Below, in pieces: positions 17,389-45,796 of a stretch of 64,000 bases of DNA. Under the pieces are notes generated by a model that was not told the DNA's origin, made no database searches, and worked only from the letters and a program-made list of their open reading frames with translations. Numbering within the stretch: the first letter of the stretch is position 1; each line of letters begins with the position of its first letter. The DNA is taken from assembly GCA_047602425.1 (NCBI GenBank), contig JASGHG010000001.1:4864001-4928000 (forward strand), written 5' to 3'. Position numbers and translations under genes: made by a program. The stretch comes from Nibricoccus sp. GTDB taxonomy: Bacteria; Verrucomicrobiota; Verrucomicrobiia; Opitutales; Opitutaceae.

Positions 17389-17391
17389 CCT

Positions 17392-25813: not shown

Positions 25814-27889
25814 ATGCGCCTGCTCATCATTCCCGCCGTTCTCCTCGCCGTCGTGTTTTCGCTCTCCGCCCGCGCTGGAGAAAAATCCCTCATCGACACG
25901 ACTCGTTCGCCGAATGCCAAAATGTACATGGTCGATCTCGGCGACGTCCACTGGACCAGTGGCTTCTGGGCCGAGCGTTTCGATGTTTGTCGCACAACCA
26001 TGGTTCCCCATCTCTGGGAAATCTTTCGCAACCCAAAGGAAAGCCACGCCTGGGACAATTTCCTCATGGCCGCCGGACTCGGCGAAGGTCGCGGCGACGG
26101 CAAACCGCACGGTCCTCCATTCAACGACGGTGATTTTCTGAAATGGCTTGAGGCGCTCGCACAGATCTACGCCGTCACCCGCGATCCCGCGATCGACAAG
26201 CAGATGGACGACATCATTGCCGTGGTCGCAAAAGCCCAGCGCGAGGATGGCTACCTTCACACGCACAAGATTGTGCCACAGCGCCGCGGTCAGTCCGGTG
26301 CAGCCGCCAAGGAGTTCGAGGATCGCGAACACTTCGAAACCTACAATATGGGCCACCTGATTACGACGGCCTGTATTCATTATCGCGTTACAGGAAAAAC
26401 CACGTTGCTCGACTGCGCCCGCAAAGCGGCCGATTACATCGAGCGCCTCTGCAAAAACGTGCCCGCCGATCTCGCGCGCAATGCCATTTGCCCTTCGCAC
26501 TACATGGCCGTGGTGGAACTCTACCGCACGACTCGCGAGCCGCGTTATCTCGAACTCGCCAAACAGCTCATCGAAATCCGCAATCTCGTCGGCGGAAAAG
26601 AGGGCTCCGATCACAATCAGGATCGTACGCCCTTCCGCGAAACGTTCGAAGCCGTCGGCCACGCAGTTCGCGCGAACTATCTCTATGCCGGCGTCACGGA
26701 TCTCGTTACCGAAAATGGCGACCAAACGCTTTTCAAGCCGCTCGACGCCATCGGACACGATGTTGCCGAACAAAAACTCTACATCACCGGCATGACCGGG
26801 GCGCTTTATGATGGCGCTTCGCCCGATGGCGCCGAAAACAAACTCTACGCCCAAATCAAACCCGTCCACCAAGCCTACGGCCGCGATTTTCAATTGCCCA
26901 ATCTCACGGCCTACAACGAAACCTGCGCAACGATTGGTTACGCAATGTGGACCTGGCGCATGCTCGAACTCACCGGTGAAGCGCGCTACGCCGATCTTTT
27001 CGAGCAAACGCTCTACAACGGCGTCCTCCCCGGCATCAGCCTCGATGGAAAACTCTATTTTTACGTCAATCCGCTGCGCAAATCCGCCGACTTCAAGTGG
27101 CCAATGCGCTGGTCGCGTACTCGCGTCGCCAACATCCCTTCGTCTTTCTGCTGTCCGCCCAATGTTGTCCGAACCATCGCCGAGGCGCACAATTACGTGT
27201 ATTCACTTTCCCCCGACACGCTTTGGGTCCACCTCTACGCCGCCAACACGCTCGACACGGCCTGGATTGATGGCAGCCGCATCAAATTGAAACAAGAGAC
27301 CGATTATCCCTGGGATGGTATGGTCAAAATCACCATCGCCGAAGCTCCCCCGCGACCGATCACGTTGAAGCTGCGCATCCCCGCTTGGCTCCGCGCCGGA
27401 ACCGCAACCGTCAAAGTGAAGGGCAAACCCGTCGACGGCACACCGCGACCGGGAAACTATTTCGAAATCAAACGCGAATGGAAATCGGGTGATCAAATCG
27501 AAATCGCGATGTCGTTTACCCCAATCCTCATGGAATCCAATCCCATGGTTGAGGAAACGGTCAACCAGGTCGCTGTGAAATTCGGTCCTCTTGTGTACTG
27601 CCTCGAAGGCGATGATGTCCCGAAGGGCGTTCCCATGTCCGATCTCGCACTGTCGCTCTCAGACAAGTTGCCGGAGTTTGAAAAGAAGTCTGAGGAAATT
27701 GCCGGAGCCCACGTCATCACCTTGGCGACAAAAGCCCGGCACTATCCGCGCAAACCCTGGGCCTCCGACTCCCTCTACCGGGAAGCCGAACTACTCAAGC
27801 CACTTCGGCTTAACATCAAACTCGTCCCCTACTACACGTGGGGCAACCGCAGCGACTCCGACATGACCGTCTGGCTTCCCGCCCGGTAA
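25814..27889 (+). CDS. GH127 glycoside hydrolase, aceric-acid-hydrolase-like
   Basis: Signal peptide; VGHAVRANYLY, YNETCA, FCCPPNVVRT GH127 motifs. The N-terminal SPNAK..DVHWTSGFWAERF..GPPFNDGDF..ICPSHYM pattern resembles my recollection of the BT1003-type clade. Confidence 0.88.
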   Translation: MRLLIIPAVLLAVVFSLSARAGEKSLIDTTRSPNAKMYMVDLGDVHWTSGFWAERFDVCRTTMVPHLWEIFRNPKESHAWDNFLMAAGLGEGRGDGKPHGPPFNDGDFLKWLEALAQIYAVTRDPAIDKQMDDIIAVVAKAQREDGYLHTHKIVPQRRGQSGAAAKEFEDREHFETYNMGHLITTACIHYRVTGKTTLLDCARKAADYIERLCKNVPADLARNAICPSHYMAVVELYRTTREPRYLELAKQLIEIRNLVGGKEGSDHNQDRTPFRETFEAVGHAVRANYLYAGVTDLVTENGDQTLFKPLDAIGHDVAEQKLYITGMTGALYDGASPDGAENKLYAQIKPVHQAYGRDFQLPNLTAYNETCATIGYAMWTWRMLELTGEARYADLFEQTLYNGVLPGISLDGKLYFYVNPLRKSADFKWPMRWSRTRVANIPSSFCCPPNVVRTIAEAHNYVYSLSPDTLWVHLYAANTLDTAWIDGSRIKLKQETDYPWDGMVKITIAEAPPRPITLKLRIPAWLRAGTATVKVKGKPVDGTPRPGNYFEIKREWKSGDQIEIAMSFTPILMESNPMVEETVNQVAVKFGPLVYCLEGDDVPKGVPMSDLALSLSDKLPEFEKKSEEIAGAHVITLATKARHYPRKPWASDSLYREAELLKPLRLNIKLVPYYTWGNRSDSDMTVWLPAR

Positions 27890-27958
27890 TAAATCCTTCT
27901 CTTTACTCATTCTCTTTATCTTTCTCCTCCAGCCCATCCGTCCAACTCCCCGAAATCC

Positions 27959-29261
27959 ATGAGCCAACCAATACCAGCCCCAACCTCTAAAGCCGAGGCC
28001 GCCCAGGCCGTCCAGATCACTCGCCAGCAATGGAAATGGTCCGCCCTTGCCGGCATGGCCTCCTACCTCGATGCCGGCTCCATCGTCGCCCTCGGTGCGG
28101 GTCTCGCGATTTTTCAGAAGCAATTTGGCATGAGCGATGGAGCGGTTGGCACGCTTCAAGCCATCGGCCCCAACGCCTTTGGTTGCGCAGCGGGCGCTTT
28201 GCTGGGCGGTTGGCTCGGCGACAAACTCGGTCGAAAACGCATCTACCAGTATGACCTCATCGTCTATGCCATTGGCATTCTGCTGATCGCATTTTCAATG
28301 AATAAGGAGATGCTTTTTGGCGGCACGTTCATCGTCGGACCTCGCGGTTGGCGCCGACATTCCCACGTCGCTCGCCCTCGTCGGCGAACTCGCCCCGGAC
28401 AAAGCGCGTGGCAAACTTCTCGGCTTCACCCAAGTCGCCTGGTGTCTCGGGCCGGCAATCGTGCTCTGGCTCGCTCTCGCTCTTTCCGGCATCGGACTGC
28501 TCGGTGTCCGCATTGTTTTCCTCCATCTGTTTGTGGTCGCTTTTGTGACTTGGGCACTCCGACGCGGCTTGGCTGAATCGGCTCGCTGGAAAGATGCCAA
28601 GGCCGCCTACCAAATCACCCGCTCCAAGGCGGCCGAAACCGCCGCGCTCTTTTCCGGCGCGAATTTCCGCGCGTTGGTTTGGACTGCCACTATCTATACG
28701 TTTTGGAACCTTGCTGCAGGCACAGCCGGCGCGTTTAATTCCTACCTGATCACAAAGCACAACGCCGACAATCAGGCCCTTGGCGTCGGCCTGCCGAGTG
28801 CGGCCTTTGTCAGCATGATGCTCGTGACTCTCACGGTCTTCATGCCTTACTCGGATCGCAACCATCGCACGAGAAAATGGCTCTGGGCTATTGGTTCGCT
28901 CACGCAAATTTTTGCCTACGCGCTCTTGATCGTCATGCCCTTCAGCATTCCGGTCATCGTGGCCAACATTGTGCTCTTTGCGGGTGGCGCTGCGCTCGCC
29001 GGCGAGGCCTTCTATAAGGTTTTCAGCCAGGAACTCTTTCCCACCATGTTGCGCGGCACGGCCCAAGGCTTCACGTTTGGCTTCGCGCGCATCGCGGTCG
29101 GTGTATGGAGTGTCTTCGTGCCAAAACTCGCCCACGATGGTGTCGGCACGCTCGCGACTTTCCTCACACTTTTCCTCGTGATCAGCGGCGCCGTCGGTTT
29201 CTTCCTCATGCCCAACACCTCCGGAAAATCACTGGAGCAGATCGAAACCGAGCGCTCCTAA
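27959..29261 (+). CDS. MFS sugar transporter, interrupted by one extra base near 28340
   Basis: ORFs 27959..28576 (SYLDAGSIVA, GWLGDKLGRKRI) and 28317..29261 join as GTFIVG|LAVGADIPTS if one C of 28340-28341 is removed. Confidence 0.88.
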
Positions 29262-29295
29262 TTACACTAATCCCATCGCACTTCACTCGTTCCGC

Positions 29296-32064
29296 ATGTC
29301 CACCGATCTTCGTGTTGTCCATCTCCGCTGCGAATATCTCGTCAATCCACTCGGGATTGATGAACGCGTCCCGCGCCTGAGCTGGCAGCTTGAATCTTCC
29401 CGACGCGGCGCCCGTCAAGTCGCGTACCGTCTTCACGTGGCAAGCAAACCTGAACTGCTCGCCACCGCCAAGTCCGATCGTTGGGATACAGGCCGCGTCG
29501 AAAGCAGCCAAACCACGCATATTGCCTATGCAGGGAGCCCGTTGCATTCACGCGATGTTTGCCACTGGCAGGTGGAAGTCTGGGATGAAACCGGAGTCAG
29601 CATCAAATCCGAACCGAGTCTTTGGTCCATGGGGCTTTTGGAAAAATCCGAGTGGCTCGCCCAATGGATTACCCATGATCCGGAAATCATCCGGCGCGAT
29701 CCAGAAGCCATCGTAGCTACTCTCATCGAGCCCGGCACCCCTGCGATTTTCCGCAAAGAGTTTGAAATTCCTGCGACAATCAAGCGTGCCACTATCTACG
29801 CCAGCGCTCGCGGCGTTTTCGAACTTCGCGCAAATGGCCAGCGAATCGGTGAAGATCTTTTTGCCCCGGAGTGGACTGACTACGACAAGCGGATTCACTA
29901 CCGAACCTACGACGTTACCCAACTTCTTTCACCTGGCCTCAATGTAATCGGTGCCACGCTTGGCGATGGCTGGTGGTCCGGCTACGTCGGCTGGCAGGAA
30001 ACGCGCTGTCGCTACGGATCGCTGATCAATAGCTTTGTTGCCCAACTCGAAATCGAACTTGCCGATGGTCGCCGCCTCACCATCGGCACCGACGGCTCTT
30101 GGACCTGCAACACCGGCCCCATCCTCTCTTCCGACTGGATGATGGGCGAAACCTACGACGCCCGACGTGAACGCACTGGTTGGGATCGTCCGGGTTTTGA
30201 AATCGATAACCAAAAGTCGAACAGCAAAAATTCCACACCCTGGCTTTCCGCCCTCGAGGTCGCCGCACCCACGGTTCCTCTCGTCGCCCAACGCGCCGAA
30301 CCCGTTCGCATTACCGAATTCCTCAAGCCCGTTTCGCTGACCGAAATCAAACCGGGAGTCTGGATCTACGACCTCGCCCAAAACATTTCCGGTTGGGTCC
30401 GCCTGAAACTTCCGCCACTTCCCGCTGGTACCAAAATAACGGTTCGGCAAGGCGAACGCCTCTCCCCGGATGGCACGCTCTACGTCGAAAATCTCCGTCG
30501 TGCCAAAGCCACCGACATCTACATCGTCCGAGGCAACCCAGCTGGCGAAACCTACGAGCCTCACTTTACCTTCCACGGTTTCCAATACGTTGAACTCACC
30601 GCTGTCGACCCAGCAGCCTGTCATCTATTAAATGACAAATTCCGCCCTAACCTCGCCACGGTGACCGGCTGTGCCATCCATTCCGCCACGCCGCCGGCCG
30701 GCCATTTCGAATGTTCGCATCCCGGTGTGAATCGCCTCTGGCTCAATGGTGTCTGGTCGCAGCGCGACAATTTTCTCACAGTGCCGACCGATTGCCCGCA
30801 ACGCGACGAGCGCCTCGGGTGGATGGGCGATGCGCAGGTTTTTCTTCGCACCGCCTCGTACAATATGGACGTCGCGGCGTTCTTCACAAAGTGGATGATC
30901 GATGTCGAAGACGCGCAGACTCCCGAGGGCATTTTTCCGGACACCGCCCCGCGTCTCCGCGAAGGCGAAAACTTCATCGGCCTCGGCAATTTGGGCGGCT
31001 CTGCTGGTTGGGCTGACGCCGGTGTGATTATTCCCCATACGATCTGGCGCGTCTACGGCGACCGTCGCATTCTTGAGCGGCACTACAACGCCATGGTCAA
31101 ATGGGTCGATTGGATCGCCCGCCACAACTCCAACGGCCTTCGCGTCAATCAACTGGCAAATAACTACGGCGATTGGTTATGCATTCCGAGCGATACCTCC
31201 TTCGGCACGCATTCGCCGATGAAGAATTTGCTCGCCACCGCCTATTGGGCCGACGATTGCACAAAACTCTCGCAGATCGCGCGCGAGTTGGGACGCGACA
31301 CCGATGCTGCGCGTTTCCAAAAAATGTTCGAATACGTCCGAACCGCCTTCCAGAAGGAATGGTTGCGTCCCGACGGCCGCATCACCACCGAAACGCAAAC
31401 AGGCTACCTCCTCGCCCTCGCCTTTGACCTTCTCCCTGAAAACTTGAGGGCCGCCGCCACCGAACACCTTGTGGCGAACATCCGCGATCTCGATTGGCAT
31501 CTGAGCACCGGTTTCATCGGCATCAGCCACCTCAATCCCCAGCTCACGCTCGCGGGCCGCGCCGACGTCGCCTACAAGCTTCTCCTTCGCGACGATTATC
31601 CCTCGTGGCTCTACCCGGTGAAACATGGCGCGACCACCATCTGGGAACGCTGGAATGGCTGGACGCACCAGGACGGATTTTTCAATCCGCACATGAATTC
31701 CTTCAACCACTACTCCCTCGGCTCCGTCGGCGAGTGGCTCTTCCGTCACGTCGCGGGTATTGAACTCGATCCCCTCGTTACCGGTTTTAAAAAGTTCGTC
31801 TTGCGTCCCTTTGTCGGCACCGGCCTTGATCATGCCCGCGGGACTTACCGCACACAGCACGGCGAAATCGAAAGCGCGTGGAAACGCTCCGGCAACAAGC
31901 TCACGTGGAAAATCCGCGTTCCTCCCAACACCGCGGCCCACGTTTACATTCCCGGCGCCGCAACAAACACGGATGGCCTCAAAATCGTTTCACAGGAAAA
32001 AGATTTCACCCTTTGCGAAGCTCCGGCGGGTTGTTATGAACTGTCCTCCAACCTTTCGACTTAG
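29296..32064 (+). CDS. GH78 alpha-L-rhamnosidase, no signal peptide
   Basis: LRCEYLVNPLGID, PHFTFHGFQYVE, PTDCPQRDERLGWMGD, GATTIWERWN, MNSFNHYSLG. Confidence 0.95.
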   Translation: MSTDLRVVHLRCEYLVNPLGIDERVPRLSWQLESSRRGARQVAYRLHVASKPELLATAKSDRWDTGRVESSQTTHIAYAGSPLHSRDVCHWQVEVWDETGVSIKSEPSLWSMGLLEKSEWLAQWITHDPEIIRRDPEAIVATLIEPGTPAIFRKEFEIPATIKRATIYASARGVFELRANGQRIGEDLFAPEWTDYDKRIHYRTYDVTQLLSPGLNVIGATLGDGWWSGYVGWQETRCRYGSLINSFVAQLEIELADGRRLTIGTDGSWTCNTGPILSSDWMMGETYDARRERTGWDRPGFEIDNQKSNSKNSTPWLSALEVAAPTVPLVAQRAEPVRITEFLKPVSLTEIKPGVWIYDLAQNISGWVRLKLPPLPAGTKITVRQGERLSPDGTLYVENLRRAKATDIYIVRGNPAGETYEPHFTFHGFQYVELTAVDPAACHLLNDKFRPNLATVTGCAIHSATPPAGHFECSHPGVNRLWLNGVWSQRDNFLTVPTDCPQRDERLGWMGDAQVFLRTASYNMDVAAFFTKWMIDVEDAQTPEGIFPDTAPRLREGENFIGLGNLGGSAGWADAGVIIPHTIWRVYGDRRILERHYNAMVKWVDWIARHNSNGLRVNQLANNYGDWLCIPSDTSFGTHSPMKNLLATAYWADDCTKLSQIARELGRDTDAARFQKMFEYVRTAFQKEWLRPDGRITTETQTGYLLALAFDLLPENLRAAATEHLVANIRDLDWHLSTGFIGISHLNPQLTLAGRADVAYKLLLRDDYPSWLYPVKHGATTIWERWNGWTHQDGFFNPHMNSFNHYSLGSVGEWLFRHVAGIELDPLVTGFKKFVLRPFVGTGLDHARGTYRTQHGEIESAWKRSGNKLTWKIRVPPNTAAHVYIPGAATNTDGLKIVSQEKDFTLCEAPAGCYELSSNLST

Positions 32065-32076
32065 TATTTTTTAACC

Positions 32077-33732
32077 ATGCGTCGCCGTCACAACATTGGT
32101 TCGAGGAGGAGCACGTTGTCCCTAACGCGCTTTTGCCCGCTATCCGTCGTTTTATTCCAGTTTTTCTTCGGCACAATTCTCACTCTCAATCTTTCCAGCG
32201 CGGAAGCGGCAGCCGATATCGTTCCGCGTAACGAACCGCTTGCCACCACTAGTTCCGGTCCAATCAGCGGCTATATCGACCAAGGGATCAACGCCTTCAA
32301 AGGCATTCCTTACGGCGGTGATACTGCCCTTCGTCGTTTCAAAGCCCCGGTTCCACCCGATCCGTGGGCCGAGGTGCGACGCTGTGTCGAGTTCGGTCCG
32401 ATGGCGGTCCAGCCGAATGGTTATCATGCGGATCGCGCCGATCGGCCCGCGTATCAGCAAAGCGAAGATTGCCTTCGACTCAACGTGTGGACGCCCGCTC
32501 TGCGTGACGGAAAGAAGCGCCCGGTCCTCGTCTATTTTCACGGTGGCGCTTACAACGGTGGTTCGGTTAACTCCGATCTCTACGACGGCGTGCGCCTTTG
32601 CAAAAAAGGCGACGTTGTTGTCGTGACCGTTAACCACCGTCTCAACGGCTTCGGTTATCTTTTCCTCGCCGACTTTGGCGGCCCAGCCTACGCGGAGTCC
32701 GGGAACGCCGGCATGCTCGATCTCGTTCTCGCGCTTAAATGGGTGCGCGATAATATCACGGAGTTCGGCGGCGATCCTGGCTGCGTGACCATTTTCGGTC
32801 AATCGGGTGGCGGTGCCAAATGCGCGACACTCATGGCCATGCCTGCGGCTCATGGACTTTTTCACCGAGTCTGGACCATGAGCGGTCAGCAAATCACCGG
32901 CCGCATGCGTAAAAACGCCAATGACACCGCGCGCAATTTTCTCCAAAAGCTCAATCTCACGCCCAGCGAGATTGGACGCCTAAATACACTTTCGACCGAA
33001 CAACTTGTCACCGCCATGGCCGGTGGATCCTGGACGCCGGTTGTCGACGGAAAAGTGCTGCCACGCGATCCCTTTGCCCCCGATGCCTCGCCGCTTTCCG
33101 CTGACATTCCCATGGTCATGGGTAACACCCACGATGAAACCACCAACCTCATCGGCGGCAGCAATTCCGCGCTTTTCACTCTCACTTGGGAAACACTGCC
33201 CGAGGCGCTCACTAAAACCATCAAGCAATTCATGGGCGAACTCACTCCCGCTGCAATCGTGGCGGAGTACCGCAAGCTTTACCCAAACTACTCGCCATCG
33301 GACATTTTCTTCGCCGCCACGACTGCCGCCCGTTCGTGGAAAAGCATGGTGGTCGAATGCGAAAGCCGCACCCGCCAGGGCGGCGCGCCAACGTACGTCT
33401 ATTATGTGGATTGGCCCTCGCCGGTTGACGGCGGAAAATGGAAGGCGCCGCACATGATCGATATCCCTCTCGTGTTCGACAATGCCGCCCAAGACAAGCT
33501 CACCAAAGGTTTTCCTGAAGCCCAAAAGCTCGCCGATCAAATGAGCGATGCACTGATCGCTTTTGCCCGTACTGGAAATCCAAATACGACCAGTCTTCCC
33601 GCCTGGCCGCGATTCGATCTCGATGCACGCCCAACCATGCTGTTCGACACCAAGGTCCGCGTCGAAAACGATCCTCGCGGCGCGGAGCGCAAGCTCTTCG
33701 CCCCGGCTGTCTACGTTCAACCCGGCACCTGA
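32077..33732 (+). CDS. Type-B carboxylesterase
   Basis: FKGIPYG, SEDCLRLNVWTP, FHGGAY, FGGDPGCVTIFGQSGGG (GxSxG), APHMIDIPLVF. Confidence 0.93.
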   Translation: MRRRHNIGSRRSTLSLTRFCPLSVVLFQFFFGTILTLNLSSAEAAADIVPRNEPLATTSSGPISGYIDQGINAFKGIPYGGDTALRRFKAPVPPDPWAEVRRCVEFGPMAVQPNGYHADRADRPAYQQSEDCLRLNVWTPALRDGKKRPVLVYFHGGAYNGGSVNSDLYDGVRLCKKGDVVVVTVNHRLNGFGYLFLADFGGPAYAESGNAGMLDLVLALKWVRDNITEFGGDPGCVTIFGQSGGGAKCATLMAMPAAHGLFHRVWTMSGQQITGRMRKNANDTARNFLQKLNLTPSEIGRLNTLSTEQLVTAMAGGSWTPVVDGKVLPRDPFAPDASPLSADIPMVMGNTHDETTNLIGGSNSALFTLTWETLPEALTKTIKQFMGELTPAAIVAEYRKLYPNYSPSDIFFAATTAARSWKSMVVECESRTRQGGAPTYVYYVDWPSPVDGGKWKAPHMIDIPLVFDNAAQDKLTKGFPEAQKLADQMSDALIAFARTGNPNTTSLPAWPRFDLDARPTMLFDTKVRVENDPRGAERKLFAPAVYVQPGT

Positions 33733-33734
33733 CC

Positions 33735-36666: not shown

Positions 36667-36743
36667 TCCACAAATAATACTGCGGGAATTTTGGGTATTA
36701 CACTTCGTTTCATTTCAACCAACTCTCTGCATTCGTTGACACC

Positions 36744-38070: not shown

Positions 38071-38081
38071 ACATATCCGCC

Positions 38082-38243
38082 GTAGAGAACACAGAGCTTT
38101 GACACAGAGTTCACAGAGTAAAACCAAACCTAACCTTTATCCTCTCTTCCTTCTACATCAATGACCATGAGTGAAAATGCGTGGTTAAGACTCCTTCTCC
38201 ATCCTCCGTGTTCTCTGTGTCCGAGCTCCGTGCCCTCTGTGAT
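38082..38243. repeat. Imperfect inverted-repeat element built from cacagag units
   Basis: Left gtagagaacacagagctttgacacagagttcacagag (38082-38118); right ctccgtgttctctgtgtccgagctccgtgccctctgtgat (38204-38243). Confidence 0.8.
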
Positions 38244-38300
38244 CCACTCCGAATAATCCCGTCATCCTATATTCTTCGTTCTCCATCCTAAATTTTCCAC

Positions 38301-38957: not shown

Positions 38958-38970
38958 CCGTTCTGCCCCG

Positions 38971-39064
38971 TGAGCGTTAAAAGTTAAGCGTTGAACATCG
39001 AGCGTTCTGCATCGTTTCCCATCCTCGACTCGATGTTAAATGTTCGATGTTCAGCGTTGGATGT
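38971..39064. repeat. Two arrays of heptamer repeats
   Basis: tgagcgt taaaagt taagcgt tgaacat cgagcgt, then tcgatgt taaatgt tcgatgt tcagcgt tggatgt. Confidence 0.8.
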
Positions 39065-39085
39065 TTCCCCCTGTTCCCCCTTCCT

Positions 39086-40423
39086 ATGCCCCAACTCCGC
39101 AAACTCTGTCTTGGCCTCGCCGCCGTCACATTTCTCGTTCTCCTGGTCGGCCTCTTCTTCAACCAATCGAACTTTTGGCAACCAGCGGCTGTAATAGCAG
39201 CGGTTGGGCTTGCAATTGGTCTGGGTGCAGTGCCTTCGCTCAAAGGCTATCAATTCACCGCGTGGATCGCCGCCGCGGTTGTTGCCGCGATGATTTATCC
39301 CTCGGGATTCCAGCGCTGGGGCAGCTTCGATCTACGCAATAAATGGCTCATTCTTCTGGTTGTGCAGATGGTGATGTTCGGCATGGGCACGCAAATGAGC
39401 CTGCGTGATTTTGCCGGGATCGTTAAAACGCCGCGCGGCGTGCTGGTTGGTATCATCTGCCATTTCACTGTCATGCCTTTCGTCGGCCTTGCCCTCACTA
39501 AAATCTTCCACTTCGAACCCGAAATCGCCGCCGGCATCATTCTCATCGGTTCCTGTTCCAGCGGACTTGCCTCGAACGTCATGGCCTATATCGCCAAGTC
39601 GAACCTTGTGCTATCGGTTACCGTGACGGCCATCACCACCATGGTCGCTCCGCTCATGACTCCGCTGCTCATGAAGCTTCTCGCTGGCACCATGGTCGAA
39701 GTGAAGTTCTTCAACATGATGATGGAGATCATCAAAATCGTTCTCGTGCCAATCGGCGCTGCGCTGTTGCATGATTATCTCAAAACGGCCACGCTTCGCG
39801 GCCGCCGGGTAACGATGGTCATTGGTTTCTTGAGCGCCCTTTGGTTATTGGCTCTGCCACTTGGCAGTTGGTCTTGGTTCGCCGCCCACGTTGATCTTGA
39901 ACCGCTTCACTGGATTGGAGCTTTTGGATTTTTCCTCGCCGCCGTCGTATTCGGCCTCGTTTATCACACCGCCACACGATTGATCCCGAAACTCGATCAG
40001 TGGACGCCACTGGCTTCGATGTTCGGTATTGTCTATTTCACTACAGTAACAACCGCCGCAGGACGCGATAACCTCCTCAAAATCGGCGGACTGCTTTTCC
40101 TGGCCGCCGCCATTCACAATGCCGCCGGTTACTTTTTCGGCTACTGGCTGAGCCGCGGTGCCGGGCTCGACAAAAACTCCGCCCGCTCCGTCGCTTTCGA
40201 AGTCGGCCTGCAAAACGGCGGCATGGCCTCCGGCCTCGCCGGCGGCATGGGCAAACTCGCCACCGTCGGCCTCGCCGCCGCCATCTTCAGCCCGTGGATG
40301 AACATCTCCGGCTCCATCCTCGCGAACTATTGGCGCCGCAAGCCCGCCGACGACTCCACCACGCCACCATCGGACTCCTTGCCAAAACCCGTCGCCGAAC
40401 CGCATAGTTCTCCGGTTCGTTAA
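39086..40423 (+). CDS. Bile acid:sodium symporter (BASS/SBF) family transporter
   Basis: MFGMGTQMSLRDF, GIILIGSCSSGLASNVMAY, AFEVGLQNGGMA, FSPWMNISGSILA. Confidence 0.92.
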   Translation: MPQLRKLCLGLAAVTFLVLLVGLFFNQSNFWQPAAVIAAVGLAIGLGAVPSLKGYQFTAWIAAAVVAAMIYPSGFQRWGSFDLRNKWLILLVVQMVMFGMGTQMSLRDFAGIVKTPRGVLVGIICHFTVMPFVGLALTKIFHFEPEIAAGIILIGSCSSGLASNVMAYIAKSNLVLSVTVTAITTMVAPLMTPLLMKLLAGTMVEVKFFNMMMEIIKIVLVPIGAALLHDYLKTATLRGRRVTMVIGFLSALWLLALPLGSWSWFAAHVDLEPLHWIGAFGFFLAAVVFGLVYHTATRLIPKLDQWTPLASMFGIVYFTTVTTAAGRDNLLKIGGLLFLAAAIHNAAGYFFGYWLSRGAGLDKNSARSVAFEVGLQNGGMASGLAGGMGKLATVGLAAAIFSPWMNISGSILANYWRRKPADDSTTPPSDSLPKPVAEPHSSPVR

Positions 40424-40437
40424 TTCCAGCCGAACTC

Positions 40438-41622
40438 ATGCCTCGCGGGTTAAAAATCATTCTGGCGGTGTCCCTGCTAGCCAATCTCGGGCTTGCCGCT
40501 GTCTACTTTCATGCCCGCCACGCCCCATCTCTGGTTTCATCCCGCACGACAACCATCAATCACGCCCAAACAACCCCGCTCGCCTCCAACTGGCAGGCCC
40601 TCGCCGCCGCCACCGCCAGCGATGATCAAGCTTACGTTGCACGCCTCCGCGCCGAGGGTTTTCCGGCCAACGTTCTCCGTGCCTTTATGAAGGCAGAGCT
40701 TGCCGAGCGTTTTGCCGAACAGCGCCGCATCGCCAGAAAGGCCACTGGCAAGGACGACTACTGGCGCGACTACAATGCTCGATACCGCGCCAATCCCGAG
40801 GCCCAAGCCGCGCTCCGAGCTCTCGACCGTCAACAGGACGAACTCCTCCACCGGCTCCTCGGTCCCGATGCACTCAGCCCGCTTGAGACCGCCCGCCGCA
40901 TCCGTCGATTTGGCAATTTATCCGCCGATAAGCTCCACCAGCTTCAGCTCTTGAGTCAGGATTATAACGATATGTCCCAGCAAATCCGCCAAACAGCCGG
41001 CACCCTGCAACTGAAGGAGGATAAAGATGAAATCGAGTACCTTTACAAAGAACGCGATGCCGACATCGCCGCCCTCCTCGCCCCCGACGAACTCATTGCA
41101 TATCAGCTGCGCGAAAGCCCGACGGCTTTCAACCTCCAGTGGAAAATCCGCGCGTTCGATGCCACCGAGCAGGAGTATGAAACCCTCTACTCCCTCCAAA
41201 AATCCTACGAGGACCAAAACAAGACAGCCAATCCCGAGGAAAGGAAAAAGGCCGAGCAATTGCTGATACAAAGCATCGAGGCAGCCCTCGGCTCCGAACG
41301 CTACACCGAGTACAAGATCACCACCGACGGTTCCTTCGTTGGCGTTGTCGAGGTCACCAACAATCAGGGACTACCTCCTGCCATCGCCAAAGAAGCCGTC
41401 GCCTACAAACTCGACGTCATCCAGCGCTGGACAGCGATCAAACAGGACCCCGTGCTCACGCAGGCCGACCGCGATGCCAAAATCGCCGCGCTCGTCGCCG
41501 AAGCCAAAGCCGCGCTCAGTCAAAAACTCGGCCCCGCTGGCTTCACTGAATACTGCAAAAACAACAACATCAGCTCGTGGATCGACAACGTTGCGAAATC
41601 CACCGGCCCGTCCAAGCCATGA
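40438..41622 (+). CDS. Membrane-anchored helical hypothetical protein (paralog A)
   Basis: 394 aa; ILAVSLLANLGL anchor; ALLAPDELIAYQLRESPTA..FDATEQEY..ALGSERYTEY. Confidence 0.85.
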   Translation: MPRGLKIILAVSLLANLGLAAVYFHARHAPSLVSSRTTTINHAQTTPLASNWQALAAATASDDQAYVARLRAEGFPANVLRAFMKAELAERFAEQRRIARKATGKDDYWRDYNARYRANPEAQAALRALDRQQDELLHRLLGPDALSPLETARRIRRFGNLSADKLHQLQLLSQDYNDMSQQIRQTAGTLQLKEDKDEIEYLYKERDADIAALLAPDELIAYQLRESPTAFNLQWKIRAFDATEQEYETLYSLQKSYEDQNKTANPEERKKAEQLLIQSIEAALGSERYTEYKITTDGSFVGVVEVTNNQGLPPAIAKEAVAYKLDVIQRWTAIKQDPVLTQADRDAKIAALVAEAKAALSQKLGPAGFTEYCKNNNISSWIDNVAKSTGPSKP

Positions 41623-42857
41623 AAGCGATCGCCTACAGCCTCCTTTGTGCCTCGCTTGGACTTAATATCCTATTCGGCTCCGTCATCCTTCGCAGAAATT
41701 CGTCCTCGACTACAACTACCACACAGCACCAATCTTCACCTCAGCCTTTCCGCTTGGAGCCCCCTCCTTCGGCATCCCCAATCTCATCCACACGTCCCCT
41801 CTGGCAGCTCCTCGGCTCCGACGACCTCCCTCAACTCGTTGCAAATCTGCGAGTAGCGGGCCTCCCACCCCGCAAGATCGCATACATCGTTCTACATTTG
41901 CTTCGGGAAAAATACGCAGCACTCCAGGACGAGAATGACGTTGGCAAAGAACCTCCGCCCTACTGGCGCAATTCCGACATCATCTCTGACAATAGTTATA
42001 ACAATCGCCAAAAGCGTGCCCGCCGCGAAGACCTGTGGCAGCAAAATCGCACCGAGGAAGCCCAGCTTCTCGGCGATGATCGTTGGCTCGCGGAGGGAAT
42101 TCCTCTCATCGATCACATCCGCCAGGCCAATGGGAATATTCTTTCCAATAAAAAACTCTCCGCGCTCGCTGAGCTTGAATCCGAATACTCAATATTGACC
42201 CGCCCGCTGGATCTCAACTCCAGCGACCCAGCCACCCGCGAGAAATTAAAACTGCTCGAAAAGGAGTTCAAGAAGGACGTCGCTCTCATCCTGACTCCTG
42301 AGGAAATGCTGGAGCGCGATCTCCGCTACAGCAACGCCGCCGGCCTGCTTCAGAACCGTTGCAACTATTTTGTCGCCACCGAGGCAGAATACCGCGCACT
42401 TTTCCCAATCTACCAGCAAATCGACCAAGCCGCGCCATACTCCGACTGGGACCAGGTCGACGAAAAAACAAAGTCCGCCCGCAAGGAAGCCGAAACCCGC
42501 GCCCAGGCCCAAATCGAGGCGATCCTCGGCCCGGCTCGCTACGCTGAATTCAAGCAAGCCAATGACGAAACGGCACGAAAGGAAAACCAGCTCGTTACCC
42601 GCCTTGGCCTTCCATTGGCATCCGCTGCTCAGCTCGTCTCGATCAAAGCCGATATTTTGTCCCGTGCCGAACAAGTGCGCAAGGACAACGCAAACAATCC
42701 AGCTGAACGCTCCTCCCGCCTTGCCGCACTTCGCACCGAGGCCGAATCCCGGATCTCCGCCACTCTCGGAGCCGCTGGCCTCACCGCCTACCGGGAACAT
42801 GCCGGCGGATGGTTAAAAATTGCGCAAGAATCCGGTCCGAAAAATACTTCTCCATGA
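41619..42857 (+). CDS. Membrane-anchored helical hypothetical protein (paralog B)
   Basis: LLCASLGLNILF anchor; LILTPEEMLERDLRYSNAA..FVATEAEY..ILGPARYAEF; ATGA overlaps at both ends. Confidence 0.85.
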   Translation: MKAIAYSLLCASLGLNILFGSVILRRNSSSTTTTTQHQSSPQPFRLEPPPSASPISSTRPLWQLLGSDDLPQLVANLRVAGLPPRKIAYIVLHLLREKYAALQDENDVGKEPPPYWRNSDIISDNSYNNRQKRARREDLWQQNRTEEAQLLGDDRWLAEGIPLIDHIRQANGNILSNKKLSALAELESEYSILTRPLDLNSSDPATREKLKLLEKEFKKDVALILTPEEMLERDLRYSNAAGLLQNRCNYFVATEAEYRALFPIYQQIDQAAPYSDWDQVDEKTKSARKEAETRAQAQIEAILGPARYAEFKQANDETARKENQLVTRLGLPLASAAQLVSIKADILSRAEQVRKDNANNPAERSSRLAALRTEAESRISATLGAAGLTAYREHAGGWLKIAQESGPKNTSP

Positions 42858-44233
42858 TCGACGAACTCAAACGCCTGCTGGGCGAAAAAAACGTCCTCAC
42901 TTCCGCCGAGGATATCATCCCCTACGGCTTCGATGGCACCGCGACGTTGAAACAGCGTCCCCTCGCCGTCGTTTTTCCCGCCAACACCGCCGAAGTTGTC
43001 GCCGTCGTCAAACTCGCCCGTTCACACAAAACGCCCATCGTTACGCGCGGCAACGGCACTGGCCTCAGCGGCGGCAGCGTGCCTGTCGCCGGCGGCATCG
43101 TTCTTTGCCTCATACGACTGGATAAGGTTATCGAACTCGACCTCGCCAATCTCACGCTCACCGCCGAAGCCGGTGTCGTGACCCAAAAAATCTACGAAAC
43201 CGCCGAGGCCGCGGGACTTTTTTATCCGCCCGATCCCGGCTCGATGAAAATCAGTACGATCGGTGGCAACGTCGCTGAAAACTCCGGCGGCCTGCGCGGC
43301 CTGAAATACGGCGTCACCCGCGACTACGTAATGGGTCTTGAAGTGGTTCTGGCCGACGGTACGGTTTGCTGGCTCGGCAGCAAATGCGTGAAAGACGTCG
43401 CCGGCTACAACCTCCGCGACCTCTTCATCGGCAGCGAAGGCACGCTTGGCATCATCACAAAAGTTCTACTCAAGCTCCTACCCAAACCCGCCGCGCGCCA
43501 GACCCTGCTCGCCACCTTCGCCGCGATGGACACCGCCGCTGCCACCGTCTCCGCTATCATCGCGGCGAAAATCATTCCATGCACGCTGGAGTTTCTCGAC
43601 CGCCGCACGCTCCAATGCGTCGAAGATTTCGCCAAAGTTGGACTTCCACGTGATGCTGAAGCTGTGCTCCTCATTGAGACAGACGGACACCCCGCCGCAG
43701 TCACCGAGGAAGCCGCCAAGATCGAGGAAATCCTCCACACCCACGGTGCCAAGACCGTCGCCCGTGCCGCCAACGCTGAGGAAGCCACGCGCCTCGCCAC
43801 CGCCCGCCGCAGCGCTTTTTCGGCTCTCGCGCGGCTACGCCCTACGACGATCCTCGAAGACATCACCGTGCCGCGCAGCAAACTCGCCGAGATGATCCGT
43901 CTCGTCAGCGAAGTCGCAACCAAGCACAACCTCCAGATCGCCACCTTCGGCCACTTCGGCGACGGAAACCTACACCCCACGATCCTCACCGACGAACGCG
44001 ACACCGCCGAAATGCACCGCGTCGAAGAGGCCTTGAAGGATATCTTCAACCATGCCCTCGCCCTCGGCGGCACCATCACCGGCGAACACGGCGTCGGCCT
44101 CGCGAAAAAAGCGTTCCTCAAGCAACAACTCGGTGACAGCAGCTACGCGTTGCTTCAACAAATCAAACGCACGCTCGATCCGGCGAACCTGCTAAATCCT
44201 GGGAAGATTTTAACCACAGATCACACGGATTAA
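42854..44233 (+). CDS. glcD: FAD-linked glycolate/lactate oxidase subunit
   Basis: RGNGTGLSGG, FYPPDPGS..STIGGNVAENSGG..LKYGVTRDYV, GSEGTLG, GHFGDGNLHP, GTITGEHGVG, LNPGKI. Confidence 0.9.
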   Translation: MIDELKRLLGEKNVLTSAEDIIPYGFDGTATLKQRPLAVVFPANTAEVVAVVKLARSHKTPIVTRGNGTGLSGGSVPVAGGIVLCLIRLDKVIELDLANLTLTAEAGVVTQKIYETAEAAGLFYPPDPGSMKISTIGGNVAENSGGLRGLKYGVTRDYVMGLEVVLADGTVCWLGSKCVKDVAGYNLRDLFIGSEGTLGIITKVLLKLLPKPAARQTLLATFAAMDTAAATVSAIIAAKIIPCTLEFLDRRTLQCVEDFAKVGLPRDAEAVLLIETDGHPAAVTEEAAKIEEILHTHGAKTVARAANAEEATRLATARRSAFSALARLRPTTILEDITVPRSKLAEMIRLVSEVATKHNLQIATFGHFGDGNLHPTILTDERDTAEMHRVEEALKDIFNHALALGGTITGEHGVGLAKKAFLKQQLGDSSYALLQQIKRTLDPANLLNPGKILTTDHTD

Positions 44234-44399
44234 CACGGATAAATCCTCATACTTCCTTGGCTGAAACTCTCTTCATAAAACAACTCTGCCGAATACAAGA
44301 ACCTCCTTCCAACAGCCGGATCTTCGTTTCCTTCGTTACCTTCTGTAAAATGGTTTCAGGTTCCGAATCCGTGCCCATCCGTAAAATCCGTGGTTAAAA
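44208..44399. repeat. Inverted-repeat element of cacggat units spanning the glcD-glcF junction
   Basis: Left ttttaaccacagatcacacggattaacacggat (44208-44240); right atccgtgcccatccgtaaaatccgtggttaaaa (44367-44399); internal cttcgtttccttcgttaccttctgt repeat. Confidence 0.85.
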
Positions 44400-45796
44400 A
44401 TTCTCTTCAGACACTCGATTATTCAGTGCTTCAGCAATGCATGCACTGCGGCATGTGTCTGCCCAGTTGCCCGACCTTTGCCGAGACCGGACGCGACCGA
44501 AATTCCCCGCGCGGTCGCATCGCCCTTATGCGCGCCGTGGCGGACGGCGAACTGCCTTTCAGCCGCAATTTCGCAGAAGAGATGAGCTACTGCCTTGGTT
44601 GCCTCGCGTGCACCACAGCCTGCCCTGCCGGTGTCGACTACGCTCATCTGCTGGAGACCGCCCGTTCCGAAGCCGAACAACGCGGCCTGCTCCAAACTCC
44701 GACACGCCGCTTCATCCGCTGGTTCACGATGCGTTTCCTGTTTGTGCACCCGCGCGCCATGCGCACCGTCGGCCGTCTGCTTTGGTTGTACCAAACTCTC
44801 GGGCTGCAAACGCTGGCACGCAGGCTGAAACTCACCGCATTGCTCCCACGCCGAATCCGCGAACTCGAACCTGCCACGCCAGAAATTCGCCCTCCGTTTT
44901 CTGACGCGCTCATCGCCAAAGTCGAACCTTCCCGTAGAGCTAAACGTTATCGCGTCGCCCTGCTCACTGGCTGTGTATCCGACTTGATCCTGGCCGAAGT
45001 CAACCGTGCCACCGTCGACGTGCTGATCGAAAACGGCTGCGAGGTCTTCACACCACGCAACCAACACTGCTGCGGCTCGCTCCACGAGCATAACGGTGAC
45101 CTCGGCACCGCCCGCCGCCTCGCCCGCATTCAGCTCGACACAATTGATCCATTTTCCGTTGACGCGATCATCAGCAACGCCGGCGGCTGCGGCTCGCATC
45201 TCAAGCATTACGACCGGCTCCTCGCCGACGATCCGGCTTACGCCGCTCGCGCCCTTGAGTGGACACGCAAGACCCGCGATATCTCGGAATGGCTCGTCGA
45301 AATTGGCTTCCGGAAACCGTCAGAAGAACGCTCCACACTCAACATTCAACGCTCAACGCTCAATGAGACGAGCGGCTCCCCCTTGAGCGTTCAGCGTTCA
45401 ACGTTAAACATTGAACGTTCCGCGCCGAAGGCGCGGCCGCTTCTCACTTATCACGAGTCCTGCCATCTCGCTCACGGACAGAAAATCTCCTCCGCTCCCC
45501 GCGCCATCTTGCGTTCGCTTCCCGACTACGAGTTTCGCGAACTCGCCGAAGCCACGTGGTGCTGCGGCAGCGCCGGGATCTATAACATCACGCAACCGGC
45601 AACCGCCACGTGGCTCCAGCAACGCAAAGTCGGCCACCTCCGCGCGACGAATGCAACGGTCGTTGCCATCGCCAACCCAGGCTGCCACCTGCAAATCTTG
45701 AACGGCCTCCGCGCCGCCGGCCTAGACGCTGTCCGCGTGGTACATCCCATCGTGCTCCTCGCAGAAGCCTACAAAGATAAAGCGCCTCTCGACTAA
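44390..45796 (+). CDS. glcF: Glycolate oxidase iron-sulfur subunit
   Basis: CMHCGMCLPSCP and CLGCLACTTACP ferredoxin motifs, SPRGRI, two CCG domains (HCCGSLH; YHESCHL..WCCGSAGIYN..ANPGCHLQI). Confidence 0.9.
   Translation: MVKNSLQTLDYSVLQQCMHCGMCLPSCPTFAETGRDRNSPRGRIALMRAVADGELPFSRNFAEEMSYCLGCLACTTACPAGVDYAHLLETARSEAEQRGLLQTPTRRFIRWFTMRFLFVHPRAMRTVGRLLWLYQTLGLQTLARRLKLTALLPRRIRELEPATPEIRPPFSDALIAKVEPSRRAKRYRVALLTGCVSDLILAEVNRATVDVLIENGCEVFTPRNQHCCGSLHEHNGDLGTARRLARIQLDTIDPFSVDAIISNAGGCGSHLKHYDRLLADDPAYAARALEWTRKTRDISEWLVEIGFRKPSEERSTLNIQRSTLNETSGSPLSVQRSTLNIERSAPKARPLLTYHESCHLAHGQKISSAPRAILRSLPDYEFRELAEATWCCGSAGIYNITQPATATWLQQRKVGHLRATNATVVAIANPGCHLQILNGLRAAGLDAVRVVHPIVLLAEAYKDKAPLD
45326..45420. 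repeat. Heptamer-based palindromic element lying in frame within glcF
   Basis: 38-bp arms 45326-45363 and 45383-45420, 29/38 complementary by my count; read as ERSTLNIQRSTLNETSGSPLSVQRSTLNIERS. Confidence 0.85.

Follow-up and report, generated by a model that had tools for sequence, protein, structure and literature searches.

A cassette of four genes in the genome of Nibricoccus sp., encoding a RuBisCO-like protein (RLP), a DUF1537 acid-sugar kinase, an Asp/Glu-racemase-fold protein and an anion carrier of the BASS/SBF family, is the best candidate for a bacterial route that consumes the rare branched pectin sugar aceric acid (3-C-carboxy-5-deoxy-L-xylose). The four genes are one unit, which is tied to an aceric-acid-hydrolase-like GH127 glycosidase and is not tied to ApnO. 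With slightly better than even confidence, the sequences point to the breakdown of an acid sugar of rhamnogalacturonan-II side chain B, with L-aceric acid the likeliest.

The window, the whole stretch of 64,000 nucleotides that was analysed, was searched with Pfam and NCBIfam profiles, and all of the genes identified are on the + strand. The RLP (35413-36666; Pfam RuBisCO_large and RuBisCO_large_N) is the core enzyme of the cassette. It is followed by the OiaK-like kinase, which is frameshifted (36744-38070; SBD_N and NBD_C), by the racemase-fold protein with its single catalytic Cys (38301-38957; PF01177), and by the BASS carrier (39047-40423; SBF), which has eight hydrophobic segments and finds its best NCBIfam match in PanS, at 202 bits against a cut-off of 400. 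Upstream is the exported GH127 (25814-27889; GH127 catalytic, middle and C-terminal domains), followed by two accessory genes, a split MFS transporter (27959-29261; MFS_1/Sugar_tr on both pieces) and a GH78 alpha-L-rhamnosidase without a signal peptide (29296-32064; five GH78 domains). A GlcD-like gene (42809-44233; NCBIfam score 514, cut-off 567.9) and a GlcF-like gene (44390-45796; 235.6, cut-off 333) are found downstream. The first-pass annotation had named the GH127, the cassette genes and GlcD/GlcF at these places, with two corrections to be made: the BASS reading frame begins at 39047, not 39086, and the kinase, although rightly identified at 36744, is two open reading frames, its frameshift having been overlooked. 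The N-terminus of the GH127 resembles a signal peptide. Those of the RLP, the kinase and the racemase-fold protein, unlike it, do not, and these three would act in the cytoplasm as a self-contained pathway with the BASS carrier.

Conservation of the cassette was assessed in 80 loci picked solely by RLP likeness (67–79% identity). These span the Verrucomicrobiota, Bacteroidota, Acidobacteriota and Planctomycetota, and several of them are incomplete. By tblastn, all 80 loci have the N-terminal half of the kinase; the C-terminal half and the racemase-fold gene were each matched in 77 and the BASS gene in 73. The order RLP, kinase, racemase-fold gene, BASS is conserved among the loci, and because it recurs across four phyla the arrangement is far beyond chance; the earlier view that the four genes belong together is thus upheld by synteny. 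Neither an aldolase nor a sugar-phosphate isomerase is a conserved neighbour of the cassette, in keeping with products that feed straight into central metabolism. The MFS pieces were matched by tblastn in 10 and 11 of the loci, clustered gene maps place the gene in 8 (8 taxon labels), and in Verrucomicrobiota loci it sits between GH127 and GH78. A homologue of the window GH78 was matched in 16/80.

Is the cassette intact in the window genome? A one-base insertion (+1) at ~37244 splits the kinase into open reading frames 36744-37346 and 37330-38070, with 217.9 and 154.6 bits on the OiaK model; the two tblastn matches meet there, offset by one base. With the frame broken, either the cassette is inactive here or the assembly is wrong at that base. 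A similar insertion at ~28339 splits the MFS gene, and an indel in a GH43 gene brings the single-base indels in this 9 kb to three (~28339, ~34573 and ~37244), none of them in a homopolymer. It is rather unlikely, in our estimate, that the frameshifts in the kinase, MFS and GH43 genes are real and that the locus is decaying, its pathway non-functional in this genome. The clustering of the indels argues for such decay, as do the intact kinase, MFS and GH43 genes of a genome of the same genus, G168, and the absence of frame breaks in rpoB, gyrA and secA; the kinase frame is also unbroken in 78 cluster members (median length 462 aa). However, the essential gene rpoC also changes frame near its 3' end (model positions 1089–1146 are in another frame), which indicates that indel errors exist in this single-contig assembly, and the remainder of the broken genes is well conserved, with amino-acid identities to G168 of 86–93% across the pieces of the kinase and the MFS gene and 74–80% across those of GH43. 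The kinase frameshift is possibly an assembly error.

GlcD and GlcF, which had been proposed to oxidise the hydroxy acid released by the module, are rejected as members of the cassette. GlcF was matched by tblastn in 0/80 loci and GlcD in 3, at about 25% identity, and their synteny with the cassette is confined to G168. There is no separate GlcE-like gene among the scanned open reading frames of the window, and the two that precede GlcD have no Pfam or NCBIfam match. By stereochemical derivation, the cleavage product of an aceric acid route would be L-lactate, which should not be a substrate of D-2-hydroxyacid oxidases of the GlcD type. Further upstream (13919-23067, + strand; Pfam, as context only) are a fucose-isomerase-like gene, a split transketolase, an FGGY kinase and an ABC transporter with DUF2291. 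These are probably the apiose transketolase route reportedly described by Carter et al. in 2018, a reading based on that description and on 43% identity between the upstream binding protein and its counterpart in a Rhizobium apiose cluster. Isomerase, split-transketolase or FGGY clusters each lie no more than 10 kb from the cassette in 4–5 of the 80 loci.

The substrate is suggested by the GH127. Against the NCBIfam 'aceric acid hydrolase' model NF049879 (AcerHdlse) it scores 918.1 bits, slightly under the curated cut-off of 950, and no other copy in the genome comes near this score, the remaining two reaching 81 and 46 bits. Its best solved relative is 5mqo, matched over the full length at 696 bits, versus 369 for the next GH127 structure. 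We take 5mqo, which carries the PDB title 'non-reducing end beta-L-arabinofuranosidase', to be BT1003, the GH127 aceric acid hydrolase of Bacteroides thetaiotaomicron. The families GH106, GH2, GH127 and GH78 are presumably those of BT0986, BT0993, BT1003 and BT1001, respectively. All of these are represented around the cassette in the 80 loci, where the neighbours include GH127, GH78, GH2, GH106, GH95, a GH140-like family, a SASA esterase and GH88. One preprint states that BT1003 releases L-aceric acid and counts all four BT proteins among the chain-B enzymes (bioRxiv 10.64898/2026.03.13.711244). Of 14 control genomes, B. thetaiotaomicron alone exceeds the NF049879 cut-off, and nothing in it matches the RLP model, so aceric acid release is possible in a genome without the cassette.

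Co-occurrence was investigated in two samples of 301 genomes each, one of Verrucomicrobiota at least 90% complete and the other from the phylum Bacteroidota. In the pooled samples, 17/17 cassette genomes carry an aceric-acid-hydrolase-like GH127, versus 6/585 others. The RLP is present in 11 of the Verrucomicrobiota genomes, and all 11 have a GH127 of at least 869 bits, a line that was set post hoc, after the bimodal distribution of scores had been seen. Of the 290 genomes that lack the RLP, just 2 attain it; one of the 301 is above the curated cut-off, below which the window GH127 also falls. The GH127 and RLP of the 11 share a contig, within 8.2 kb of one another in 10 genomes and 19.5 kb apart in one. 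A cassette-type RLP is present in 6 Bacteroidota genomes, 6/6 of which have a hydrolase above the curated cut-off, versus 4/295 of those without this RLP. The cassette genomes are kin and not independent (10 of the 11 Verrucomicrobiota hits come from one family), and, whole degradation systems being co-inherited, the phyletic link cannot single out aceric acid among rhamnogalacturonan-II components. The predicted co-occurrence of this RLP subclade with GH127 is nonetheless borne out, GH127 being also the commonest neighbour in the gene maps (26/80 loci, 13/54 taxon labels).

Does the cassette act instead on another plant acid sugar that travels with pectin degradation, with GH127 merely a frequent neighbour? 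Candidates are another branched or keto acid, such as hamamelonate (2-carboxyarabinitol), or a compound formed from Dha or Kdo. Just 26–28 of the 80 loci have a GH127 within 10 kb, and the spread of GH78 (12 taxon labels) and of GH2 (10) as neighbours comes close to that of GH127; the phyletic result, as noted, does not tell which component is used. In addition, transporter-VOC-RLP-kinase modules in Alphaproteobacteria, without visible pectin context, suggest that the RLP-kinase pair serves more than one substrate. We nevertheless regard such a substrate as unlikely. The cassette was never seen without the aceric-acid-hydrolase-like GH127 in the 17 genomes, and in 19 loci the two lie side by side. 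Among characterised enzymes, those nearest to the RLP and kinase use a tertiary-carbinol beta-keto acid and, to our knowledge, a tertiary-carbinol branch is found in rhamnogalacturonan-II only in the apiose-derived acids and aceric acid.

The apiose-derived acids suggest a further possibility, that the cassette is a variant of the oxidative apiose/apionate pathway for which 3-oxo-isoapionate is made elsewhere, the racemase-fold protein being accessory. In NCBIfam the RLP and kinase match OiaX and OiaK best, the cassette RLPs form a clade that is sister to OiaX (support 98/96, with OiaX on a long branch), and apiose-route genes are near the cassette at several loci. Yet the RLP itself is not OiaX. 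It scores 506.9 bits against the OiaX model NF042437 (cut-off 700), on which a Rhizobium OiaX control reaches 785.6, and is 47.8% identical to a PGAP-named OiaX compared with 72–78% to four cassette RLPs. The equivalents of E60, N123, K175, K201, D203, E204, H294, R295, H327 and K334 are invariant in 74/74 cassette RLPs; in Rhizobium OiaX, E60, N123 and H327 are replaced by D, G and Q, respectively.

The genes that make 3-oxo-isoapionate are also largely lacking. As the first-pass annotation had stated for the window, ApnO, ApnL and a close ApsD are absent there, and they are absent from the 5.16 Mb genome (99.97% complete). With Rhizobium phaseoli oiaX-cluster proteins as tblastn queries (E<=1e-3), the ApnO candidate and ApnL have zero matches in the whole genome, the ApsD candidate has only Gfo/Idh/MocA matches of 22–33%, and a profile search of the genome for the ApnL family NF049900 gave no match. 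Homologues of the ApnO candidate, ApnL and the TIM-like and RpiB-like isomerases occur in 0/80 loci, so the RLP subclade does accompany the racemase-fold and BASS genes and not ApnO, as had been anticipated. ApnO and ApnL were not found in 18/19 cassette genomes. The other, G258, has an operon elsewhere with ApnO-like, ApsD-like and ApnL-like genes and without a kinase or RLP of its own, which favours the apionate variant; in G258 the cassette enzymes might take 3-oxo-isoapionate. Overall the variant is very doubtful, given also that the window already has its separate probable apiose route and that the cassette carrier is for anions, not sugars. According to PMC13753588, 3-oxo-isoapionate is formed from apionate by NAD-dependent oxidation, which a cofactor-free racemase fold cannot perform.

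The racemase-fold protein is presumably a cofactor-free isomerase. As a single sequence it has no match in the PDB at E<=0.01, but its AF2 model (mean pLDDT 95.1) has as best Foldseek matches the allantoin, hydantoin, Asp and Glu racemases and arylmalonate decarboxylase, with query-normalised TM scores of 0.73 for allantoin racemase and 0.78 for aspartate racemase. In profile alignments to 2eq5, 1jfl and 2dwu, Cys75 takes the place of the first catalytic Cys in the hydantoin, Asp and Glu racemases, whereas the position of the second is occupied by Gln183, which is invariant among 39 sequences. This excludes a two-thiol racemase. Arylmalonate decarboxylase, which lacks the first catalytic Cys, is the mirror case. 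We know of no member of the superfamily that is an aldose-ketose isomerase.

For L-aceric acid, the reading that we prefer, we infer five steps and the substrate itself from the sequences. The exported GH127 would liberate aceric acid, and BASS would take up the anion. The racemase-fold enzyme, with its single thiol as the only base, would then catalyse a 1,2-proton shift from aldose to 2-ketose, giving HOCH2-CO-C(OH)(COO-)-CHOH-CH3, the methyl homologue of 3-oxo-isoapionate. The new primary hydroxyl would be phosphorylated by the DUF1537 kinase. That isomerisation comes first, as originally proposed, is chemically sound: the primary hydroxyl used by DUF1537 kinases arises only after the aldose-ketose shift. 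The resulting beta-keto acid phosphate would be the substrate of the RLP, which presumably carries out C-C cleavage or decarboxylation of a phosphorylated keto acid. Transcarboxylation/hydrolysis as by OiaT, to 3-phosphoglycerate and L-lactate, is slightly favoured; the alternative would be an OiaX-like decarboxylation to a 5-deoxypentulose 1-phosphate. The sister position to the decarboxylase OiaX weakens the OiaT-like reading, in a tree that covered the RLPs of the cassette, of OiaX and of modules in Alphaproteobacteria.

Two known systems resemble the cassette. The LacI-TRAP-VOC-RLP-kinase modules of alphaproteobacterial plasmids (Azospirillum, Roseivivax, Paracoccus) likewise combine an acid transporter, a small cofactor-free enzyme, an RLP and a DUF1537 kinase, and their RLPs are 47–49% identical to that of the window and keep E60, N123 and H327. 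They differ in having a VOC fold for the racemase fold and TRAP for BASS, in RLPs that form a separate clade (support 100/99), and in that no glycosidase context is visible. The second system is the oxidative catabolism of D-apiose and D-apionate, reportedly described by Carter et al. 2018 in Nat Chem Biol. As summarised in PMC13753588 and PMC6302742, its routes 1 and 2 lead from ApnO through OiaK to OiaX, a decarboxylase, or OiaT, a transcarboxylase/hydrolase. The cassette shares with these routes the pairing of a DUF1537 kinase with an RLP of the same subfamily, and its presumed substrate, the methyl homologue of theirs, would also be phosphorylated before the RLP step. In contrast, ApnO, ApnL, ApsD and the erythrulose-phosphate isomerases are replaced in the 80 cassette loci by the one-Cys racemase-fold protein and BASS, and ABC sugar uptake gives way to a context of rhamnogalacturonan-II glycosidases.

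Open reading frames and Pfam and NCBIfam matches show a long run of carbohydrate genes on the + strand of the window, and the genes that the first-pass annotation had named there were recovered at their positions. The source genome is a single contig of 5.16 Mb and is 99.97% complete; Nibricoccus and other Opitutaceae (Verrucomicrobiota) are the named genomes closest to it. At 7316–12809 (+), an ECF sigma factor and a FecR-like anti-sigma protein precede a TonB-dependent receptor of 1305 aa with an STN domain. Such a combination is the usual trans-envelope signalling set at glycan loci. A second ECF sigma factor is found at 45916–46467, and two ECF sigma factors thus bracket the locus. At 13919–23067 (+) are a fucose-isomerase-like gene, a split transketolase, an FGGY kinase and an ABC transporter with DUF2291, which, going by what we take to be the make-up of that pathway, form a probable apiose transketolase route. 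Between this apiose-type transporter and the GH127 gene are two exported Sde182 nucleoside-hydrolase-like proteins (23064–24386 and 24383–25807, +), homologues of which lie near the cassette in 5 of the 80 loci compared here.

GH127 (25814–27889), an MFS transporter (27959–29261), GH78 (29296–32064), a carboxylesterase (32077–33732) and GH43 (33735–35401) follow, all on the + strand. The cassette itself, also on the + strand, comprises the RuBisCO-like protein (RLP, 35413–36666), the DUF1537 kinase (36744–38070), the Asp/Glu-racemase-fold protein (38301–38957) and the BASS carrier (39047–40423). Downstream of these are two paralogous proteins without a Pfam or NCBIfam family (40438–41622 and 41577–42857, +), each with a hydrophobic segment at its N-terminus and, after it, a stretch rich in Ser and Thr. 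Same-genus genome G168 has about four copies, one Nibricoccus locus has up to five, and their Atlas neighbours are Verrucomicrobiota hypotheticals only. The run continues with GlcD-like (42809–44233, +) and GlcF-like (44390–45796, +) genes.

Relatives of the RLP were sought with one genome per species; 583 were confirmed by tblastn, and the best 80 of these 583 loci, with 67–79% RLP identity, were analysed. They belong to Verrucomicrobiota, Bacteroidota (Pedobacter, Mucilaginibacter, Pontibacter, Adhaeribacter, Arcicella, Flavobacterium, Chitinophagaceae and others), one Acidobacteriota genome and one Planctomycetota genome. With the window proteins as tblastn queries, the N-terminal half of the kinase was found in 80/80 loci, its C-terminal half in 77, the racemase-fold gene in 77 and BASS in 73. 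Part of the misses are truncations, since several loci are only 2.5–7.6 kb long. The order RLP-kinase-racemase-BASS is fixed in the gene maps, and a Rufibacter plasmid also carries this set of four, annotated in RefSeq with generic names. GH127 was found in 28/80 loci, GH78 in 16, MFS in 10–11, GlcD in three at about 25% identity and GlcF in none. The co-occurrence proposed by the first-pass annotation, of the RLP with the racemase-fold gene and BASS and not with ApnO (0/80 loci with a homologue of the ApnO candidate), is seen, with GH127 present at the lower frequency given. Its inclusion of GlcD and GlcF in the pathway, as oxidants of the hydroxy acid, has to be dropped on these counts. Both genes are downstream of the cassette only in G168. 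Nor are they identifiable as a GlcDEF glycolate oxidase: GlcD-like scores 514 bits against a cut-off of 567.9, GlcF-like 235.6 against 333, and no separate GlcE-like gene is present among the window ORFs scanned.

Is the cassette RLP a RuBisCO, or is it the decarboxylase OiaX (NF042437) of the apionate route? It retains the equivalents of RuBisCO E60, T65, N123, K175, K201, D203, E204, H294, R295, H327, K334, S379 and G403/G404, and has Ser, Trp and Gln in place of K177, H298 and G381; all of these positions, retained and substituted, are invariant in 74/74 cassette RLPs. The three substitutions, together with scores of 108–234 bits on the type III and form I/II models (cut-offs 438–497), reject a true RuBisCO of forms I–III. 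On the OiaX model the window RLP scores 506.9 bits and four cassette RLPs 499–527, below the cut-off of 700 that a Rhizobium phaseoli control passes with 785.6. No genome passes it, either among 301 Verrucomicrobiota or among the 301 of a Bacteroidota-phylum sample. Identity is 47.8% to Rhizobium OiaX and 47–51% to other ApnO-linked or VOC-linked RLPs. In contrast to the E, N and H of all 74 cassette RLPs at E60, N123 and H327, the one OiaX sequence compared has Asp, Gly and Gln. The score, this active-site pattern (against that one OiaX) and the lack, in the 80 loci, of any association with ApnO, ApnL or erythrulose-phosphate isomerases lead us to reject OiaX identity. A maximum-likelihood tree of 35 RLPs holds the cassette group together (94/95) as sister to OiaX (98/96), with OiaX on a long branch and the VOC-linked RLPs in a clade of their own (100/99). 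The 3-oxo-isoapionate-4-phosphate transcarboxylase/hydrolase OiaT, characterised in Xanthobacter, could not be placed by name: the 120 matches listed for an ApnO-linked RLP have generic names only, and no OiaT model was found in NCBIfam.

The best match of the kinase is the OiaK model (NF042436, cut-off 700), on which its two pieces score 217.9 and 154.6 bits and intact cassette kinases 363–464. This cut-off does not discriminate, because the kinase beside a bona fide Rhizobium oiaX also fails it, with 469. The two pieces result from one of three single-base indels within 9 kb, none in a homopolymer, at about 28339 (MFS), 34573 (GH43) and 37244 (kinase). G168 has unbroken copies of all three, in a syntenic locus that is 74–93% identical in amino acids from GH127 to BASS. 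Of the four long essential genes compared, three (rpoB, gyrA and secA) are intact, and the fourth, rpoC, has a frame change near its 3' end (C1:3024257-3024273). Indel errors thus do occur in the assembly, and one of them may account for the broken kinase. Real decay of the locus, through breaks in kinase, MFS and GH43, is also a possible reading, as three breaks in 9 kb exceed the rate predicted from the essential-gene errors.

The racemase-fold protein matches PF01177 with 69.3 bits (cut-off 31). Its AF2 model has a pLDDT of 95, and the best Foldseek matches are allantoin, hydantoin, Asp and Glu racemases; it resembles arylmalonate decarboxylase too. As a single query sequence the protein had no PDB match at E<=0.01, and residues were mapped from a profile of 39 sequences. 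In that alignment Cys75 coincides with the first of the catalytic cysteines in three racemases, and Gln183, invariant in 39/39, takes the place of the second one in hydantoin racemase. The two-cysteine catalysis of Asp, Glu and hydantoin racemases is thereby rejected. We infer that an enzyme with one thiol base is better suited to a suprafacial 1,2-proton shift than to racemisation. Rhizobium homologues (45–48% identity), in a context of ABC transporter and FAD-oxidoreductase genes, gave no lead to function. On a Croceibacterium plasmid (L092:6157-9928) a 47%-identical protein is paired with an MFS carrier, near a DUF5060 (apiosidase-like) protein, a malectin-domain protein, a TonB receptor and a rhamnose mutarotase, with no RLP within 8 kb.

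Could the cassette be part of an apionate route? The PGAP-named oiaX of a Rhizobium phaseoli plasmid is clustered with a kinase, TIM-like and RpiB-like isomerases, an ABC transporter, a Gfo/Idh/MocA oxidoreductase and an ApnL-type protein (1054 bits, NF049900). ApnO has a KARI/6PGDH-like fold (PMC13753588); no NCBIfam model of it turned up. Because of this fold and its position in the cluster, we take the 'phosphogluconate dehydrogenase C-terminal domain' protein there as the ApnO candidate. Homologues of the ApnO candidate, ApnL and the two isomerases are present in 0/80 cassette loci and were not found in 18 of 19 cassette genomes. The first-pass annotation had noted the absence of ApnO and ApnL from the window; searching the window's whole genome for the ApnO candidate and ApnL gave no match, so that this absence now extends to the genome. 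For the two isomerases, the only matches in this genome (TIM-like, 41% identity; RpiB-like, 31%) are some 1.5–1.8 Mb distant from the cassette. The exception is G258, an Opitutaceae genome with an operon of ApnO-like (48% identity), Gfo/Idh/MocA ApsD-like and ApnL-like (292 bits) genes (L100:8124-11856, contig 20). This operon is on another contig than the cassette and has no kinase or RLP beside it, and the only RLP of the genome is that of the cassette. As a caveat, the cassette enzymes of G258 might serve apionate as well.

The genes clustered around the cassette encode GH127, GH78, GH2, GH106, GH95, a GH140-like apiosidase, a SASA esterase, DUF5703 and GH88. Counted over 54 taxon labels taken from record titles, GH127 is the most widespread neighbour (26 loci, 13 labels), followed by GH78 (12 labels) and GH2 (10), and in 19 loci GH127 is the immediate neighbour of the cassette. 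We take BT0986, BT0993, BT1003 and BT1001 to be members of GH106, GH2, GH127 and GH78, respectively. A preprint describes these four as enzymes of rhamnogalacturonan-II side chain B and has BT1003 releasing L-aceric acid from AceA-Rha-Api (bioRxiv 10.64898/2026.03.13.711244). On the aceric acid hydrolase model NF049879 the window GH127 scores 918.1 bits, narrowly under the curated cut-off of 950, and the cassette-adjacent GH127s of Pedobacter and Paradesertivirga score 1183 and 1196. Its PDB match to 5mqo is 696 bits, against 369, 333 and 249 for other GH127 structures. This match, and its place in the top group of a bimodal score distribution over 301 genomes, put it nearer the aceric-acid-hydrolase type than the beta-L-arabinofuranosidase GH127s, which upholds the initial assignment.

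Signal-peptide-like N-termini are present on GH127, GH43, the esterase and the nucleoside-hydrolase-like proteins and on none of RLP, kinase, racemase-fold protein and GH78. The signal-less GH78 and the MFS gene between it and GH127 suggest that a rhamnosyl-apiose disaccharide is taken up and split in the cytoplasm. In Verrucomicrobiota, the Rha-Api left after aceric acid removal could be imported by MFS and split by GH78, feeding the probable apiose route upstream.

A further block is found upstream of some cassettes (e.g. L049:1-9989, L029, L043, L045, L068), with an SBP_bac_1-like protein, a Gfo/Idh/MocA oxidoreductase, a MaoC-like dehydratase and an MFS carrier. It is present in 19–21 of 80 loci (8–9 taxon labels per gene), is in some cases accompanied by a pair of CoA-transferase III genes and a further SBP-like protein, and may represent a second pathway, with a different pectin sugar as its substrate.

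Is the cassette tied to the hydrolase at the level of genomes? Among 301 Verrucomicrobiota genomes at least 90% complete, that of the window included, NF049879 scores are at least 869 bits in 13, 574–762 in seven and at most 476 in the rest; the 869-bit line was set after the distribution was seen. The RLP is present in 11 of the 301 (488–525 bits on the OiaX model). All 11 belong to the top hydrolase group and have RLP and GH127 on one contig; the two genes are adjacent in two genomes, at most 8.2 kb apart in 10, and separated by 19.5 kb in the eleventh. The remaining two genomes of the top group, G270 and G108, have no RLP. The 301 genomes of the Bacteroidota-phylum sample were centred on a Pedobacter genome chosen for having the cassette. 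Six carry a cassette-type RLP (491–509 bits); 63 more with weak RuBisCO-family matches of 205–230 bits were scored negative. Ten pass the hydrolase cut-off, all six cassette genomes among them, or five of five when the centre genome is excluded. In two more cassette genomes (Pontibacter and Flavobacterium), the loci of which have no GH127 within 10 kb, the hydrolase is elsewhere in the genome (1186 and 1109 bits). A Bacteroides thetaiotaomicron control passes the hydrolase cut-off and has no RLP-model match. In these samples the cassette implies the hydrolase, and the converse does not hold; these are counts over kin that are not independent, in which aceric acid is not separable from other parts of the same polysaccharide.

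In the pathway we propose, exported GH127 would free aceric acid and BASS would import it. The racemase-fold enzyme would then make the 2-ketose, a methyl homologue of 3-oxo-isoapionate, and so create the only primary hydroxyl that a DUF1537 kinase could use. The kinase would phosphorylate this hydroxyl, and the RLP would act on the product. Does the RLP cleave or decarboxylate it? Decarboxylation is a plausible alternative, consistent with the position of the cassette RLPs as sister to OiaX. We slightly favour cleavage to 3-phosphoglycerate and lactate, since the cassette RLP keeps carboxylase-type residues lost in OiaX and since the cassette, unlike the OiaX cluster with its two isomerases, has neither an aldolase nor an isomerase as a conserved neighbour. 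From the L-xylo configuration we derive that the lactate would be L-lactate, the oxidation of which by GlcD-type enzymes is not expected. The most far-reaching form of this reading is possible but doubtful: an RLP with a nearly whole carboxylase active site would perform transcarboxylation and hydrolysis of phosphorylated, isomerised aceric acid to 3-phosphoglycerate and L-lactate, fed by a one-Cys, cofactor-free aldose-ketose isomerase of the racemase fold.

Neither a description of the cassette nor a published route for aceric acid catabolism was found in the searchable literature, which leaves out most subscription journals. If the far-reaching form is true, four genes alone would channel a branched sugar acid of plants into central metabolism, with a new reaction type for both enzyme superfamilies. 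If our reading holds more generally, a gap would be closed in the mineralisation of the most complex plant pectin in soil and water. The pairing of RLP and DUF1537 kinase would gain a third substrate class and the racemase superfamily an isomerase member. Being widespread, as the 583 RLP relatives indicate, the cassette could be a genomic marker for aceric acid use. Degraders with the hydrolase and no RLP match, such as B. thetaiotaomicron, may leave aceric acid to others.

Two known arrangements resemble the cassette. A module of LacI, TRAP transporter, VOC, RLP and DUF1537 kinase genes recurs on alphaproteobacterial plasmids (L085:4415-10567, L095:4631-10483, L096:4650-10491). Its four-part logic matches that of the cassette, except that the enzyme is VOC-fold and the transporter TRAP, and its RLPs form their own clade. 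The oxidative apiose/apionate type likewise combines a DUF1537 kinase with an RLP, and from it the cassette differs in predicted substrate class, first-step enzyme and transporter.
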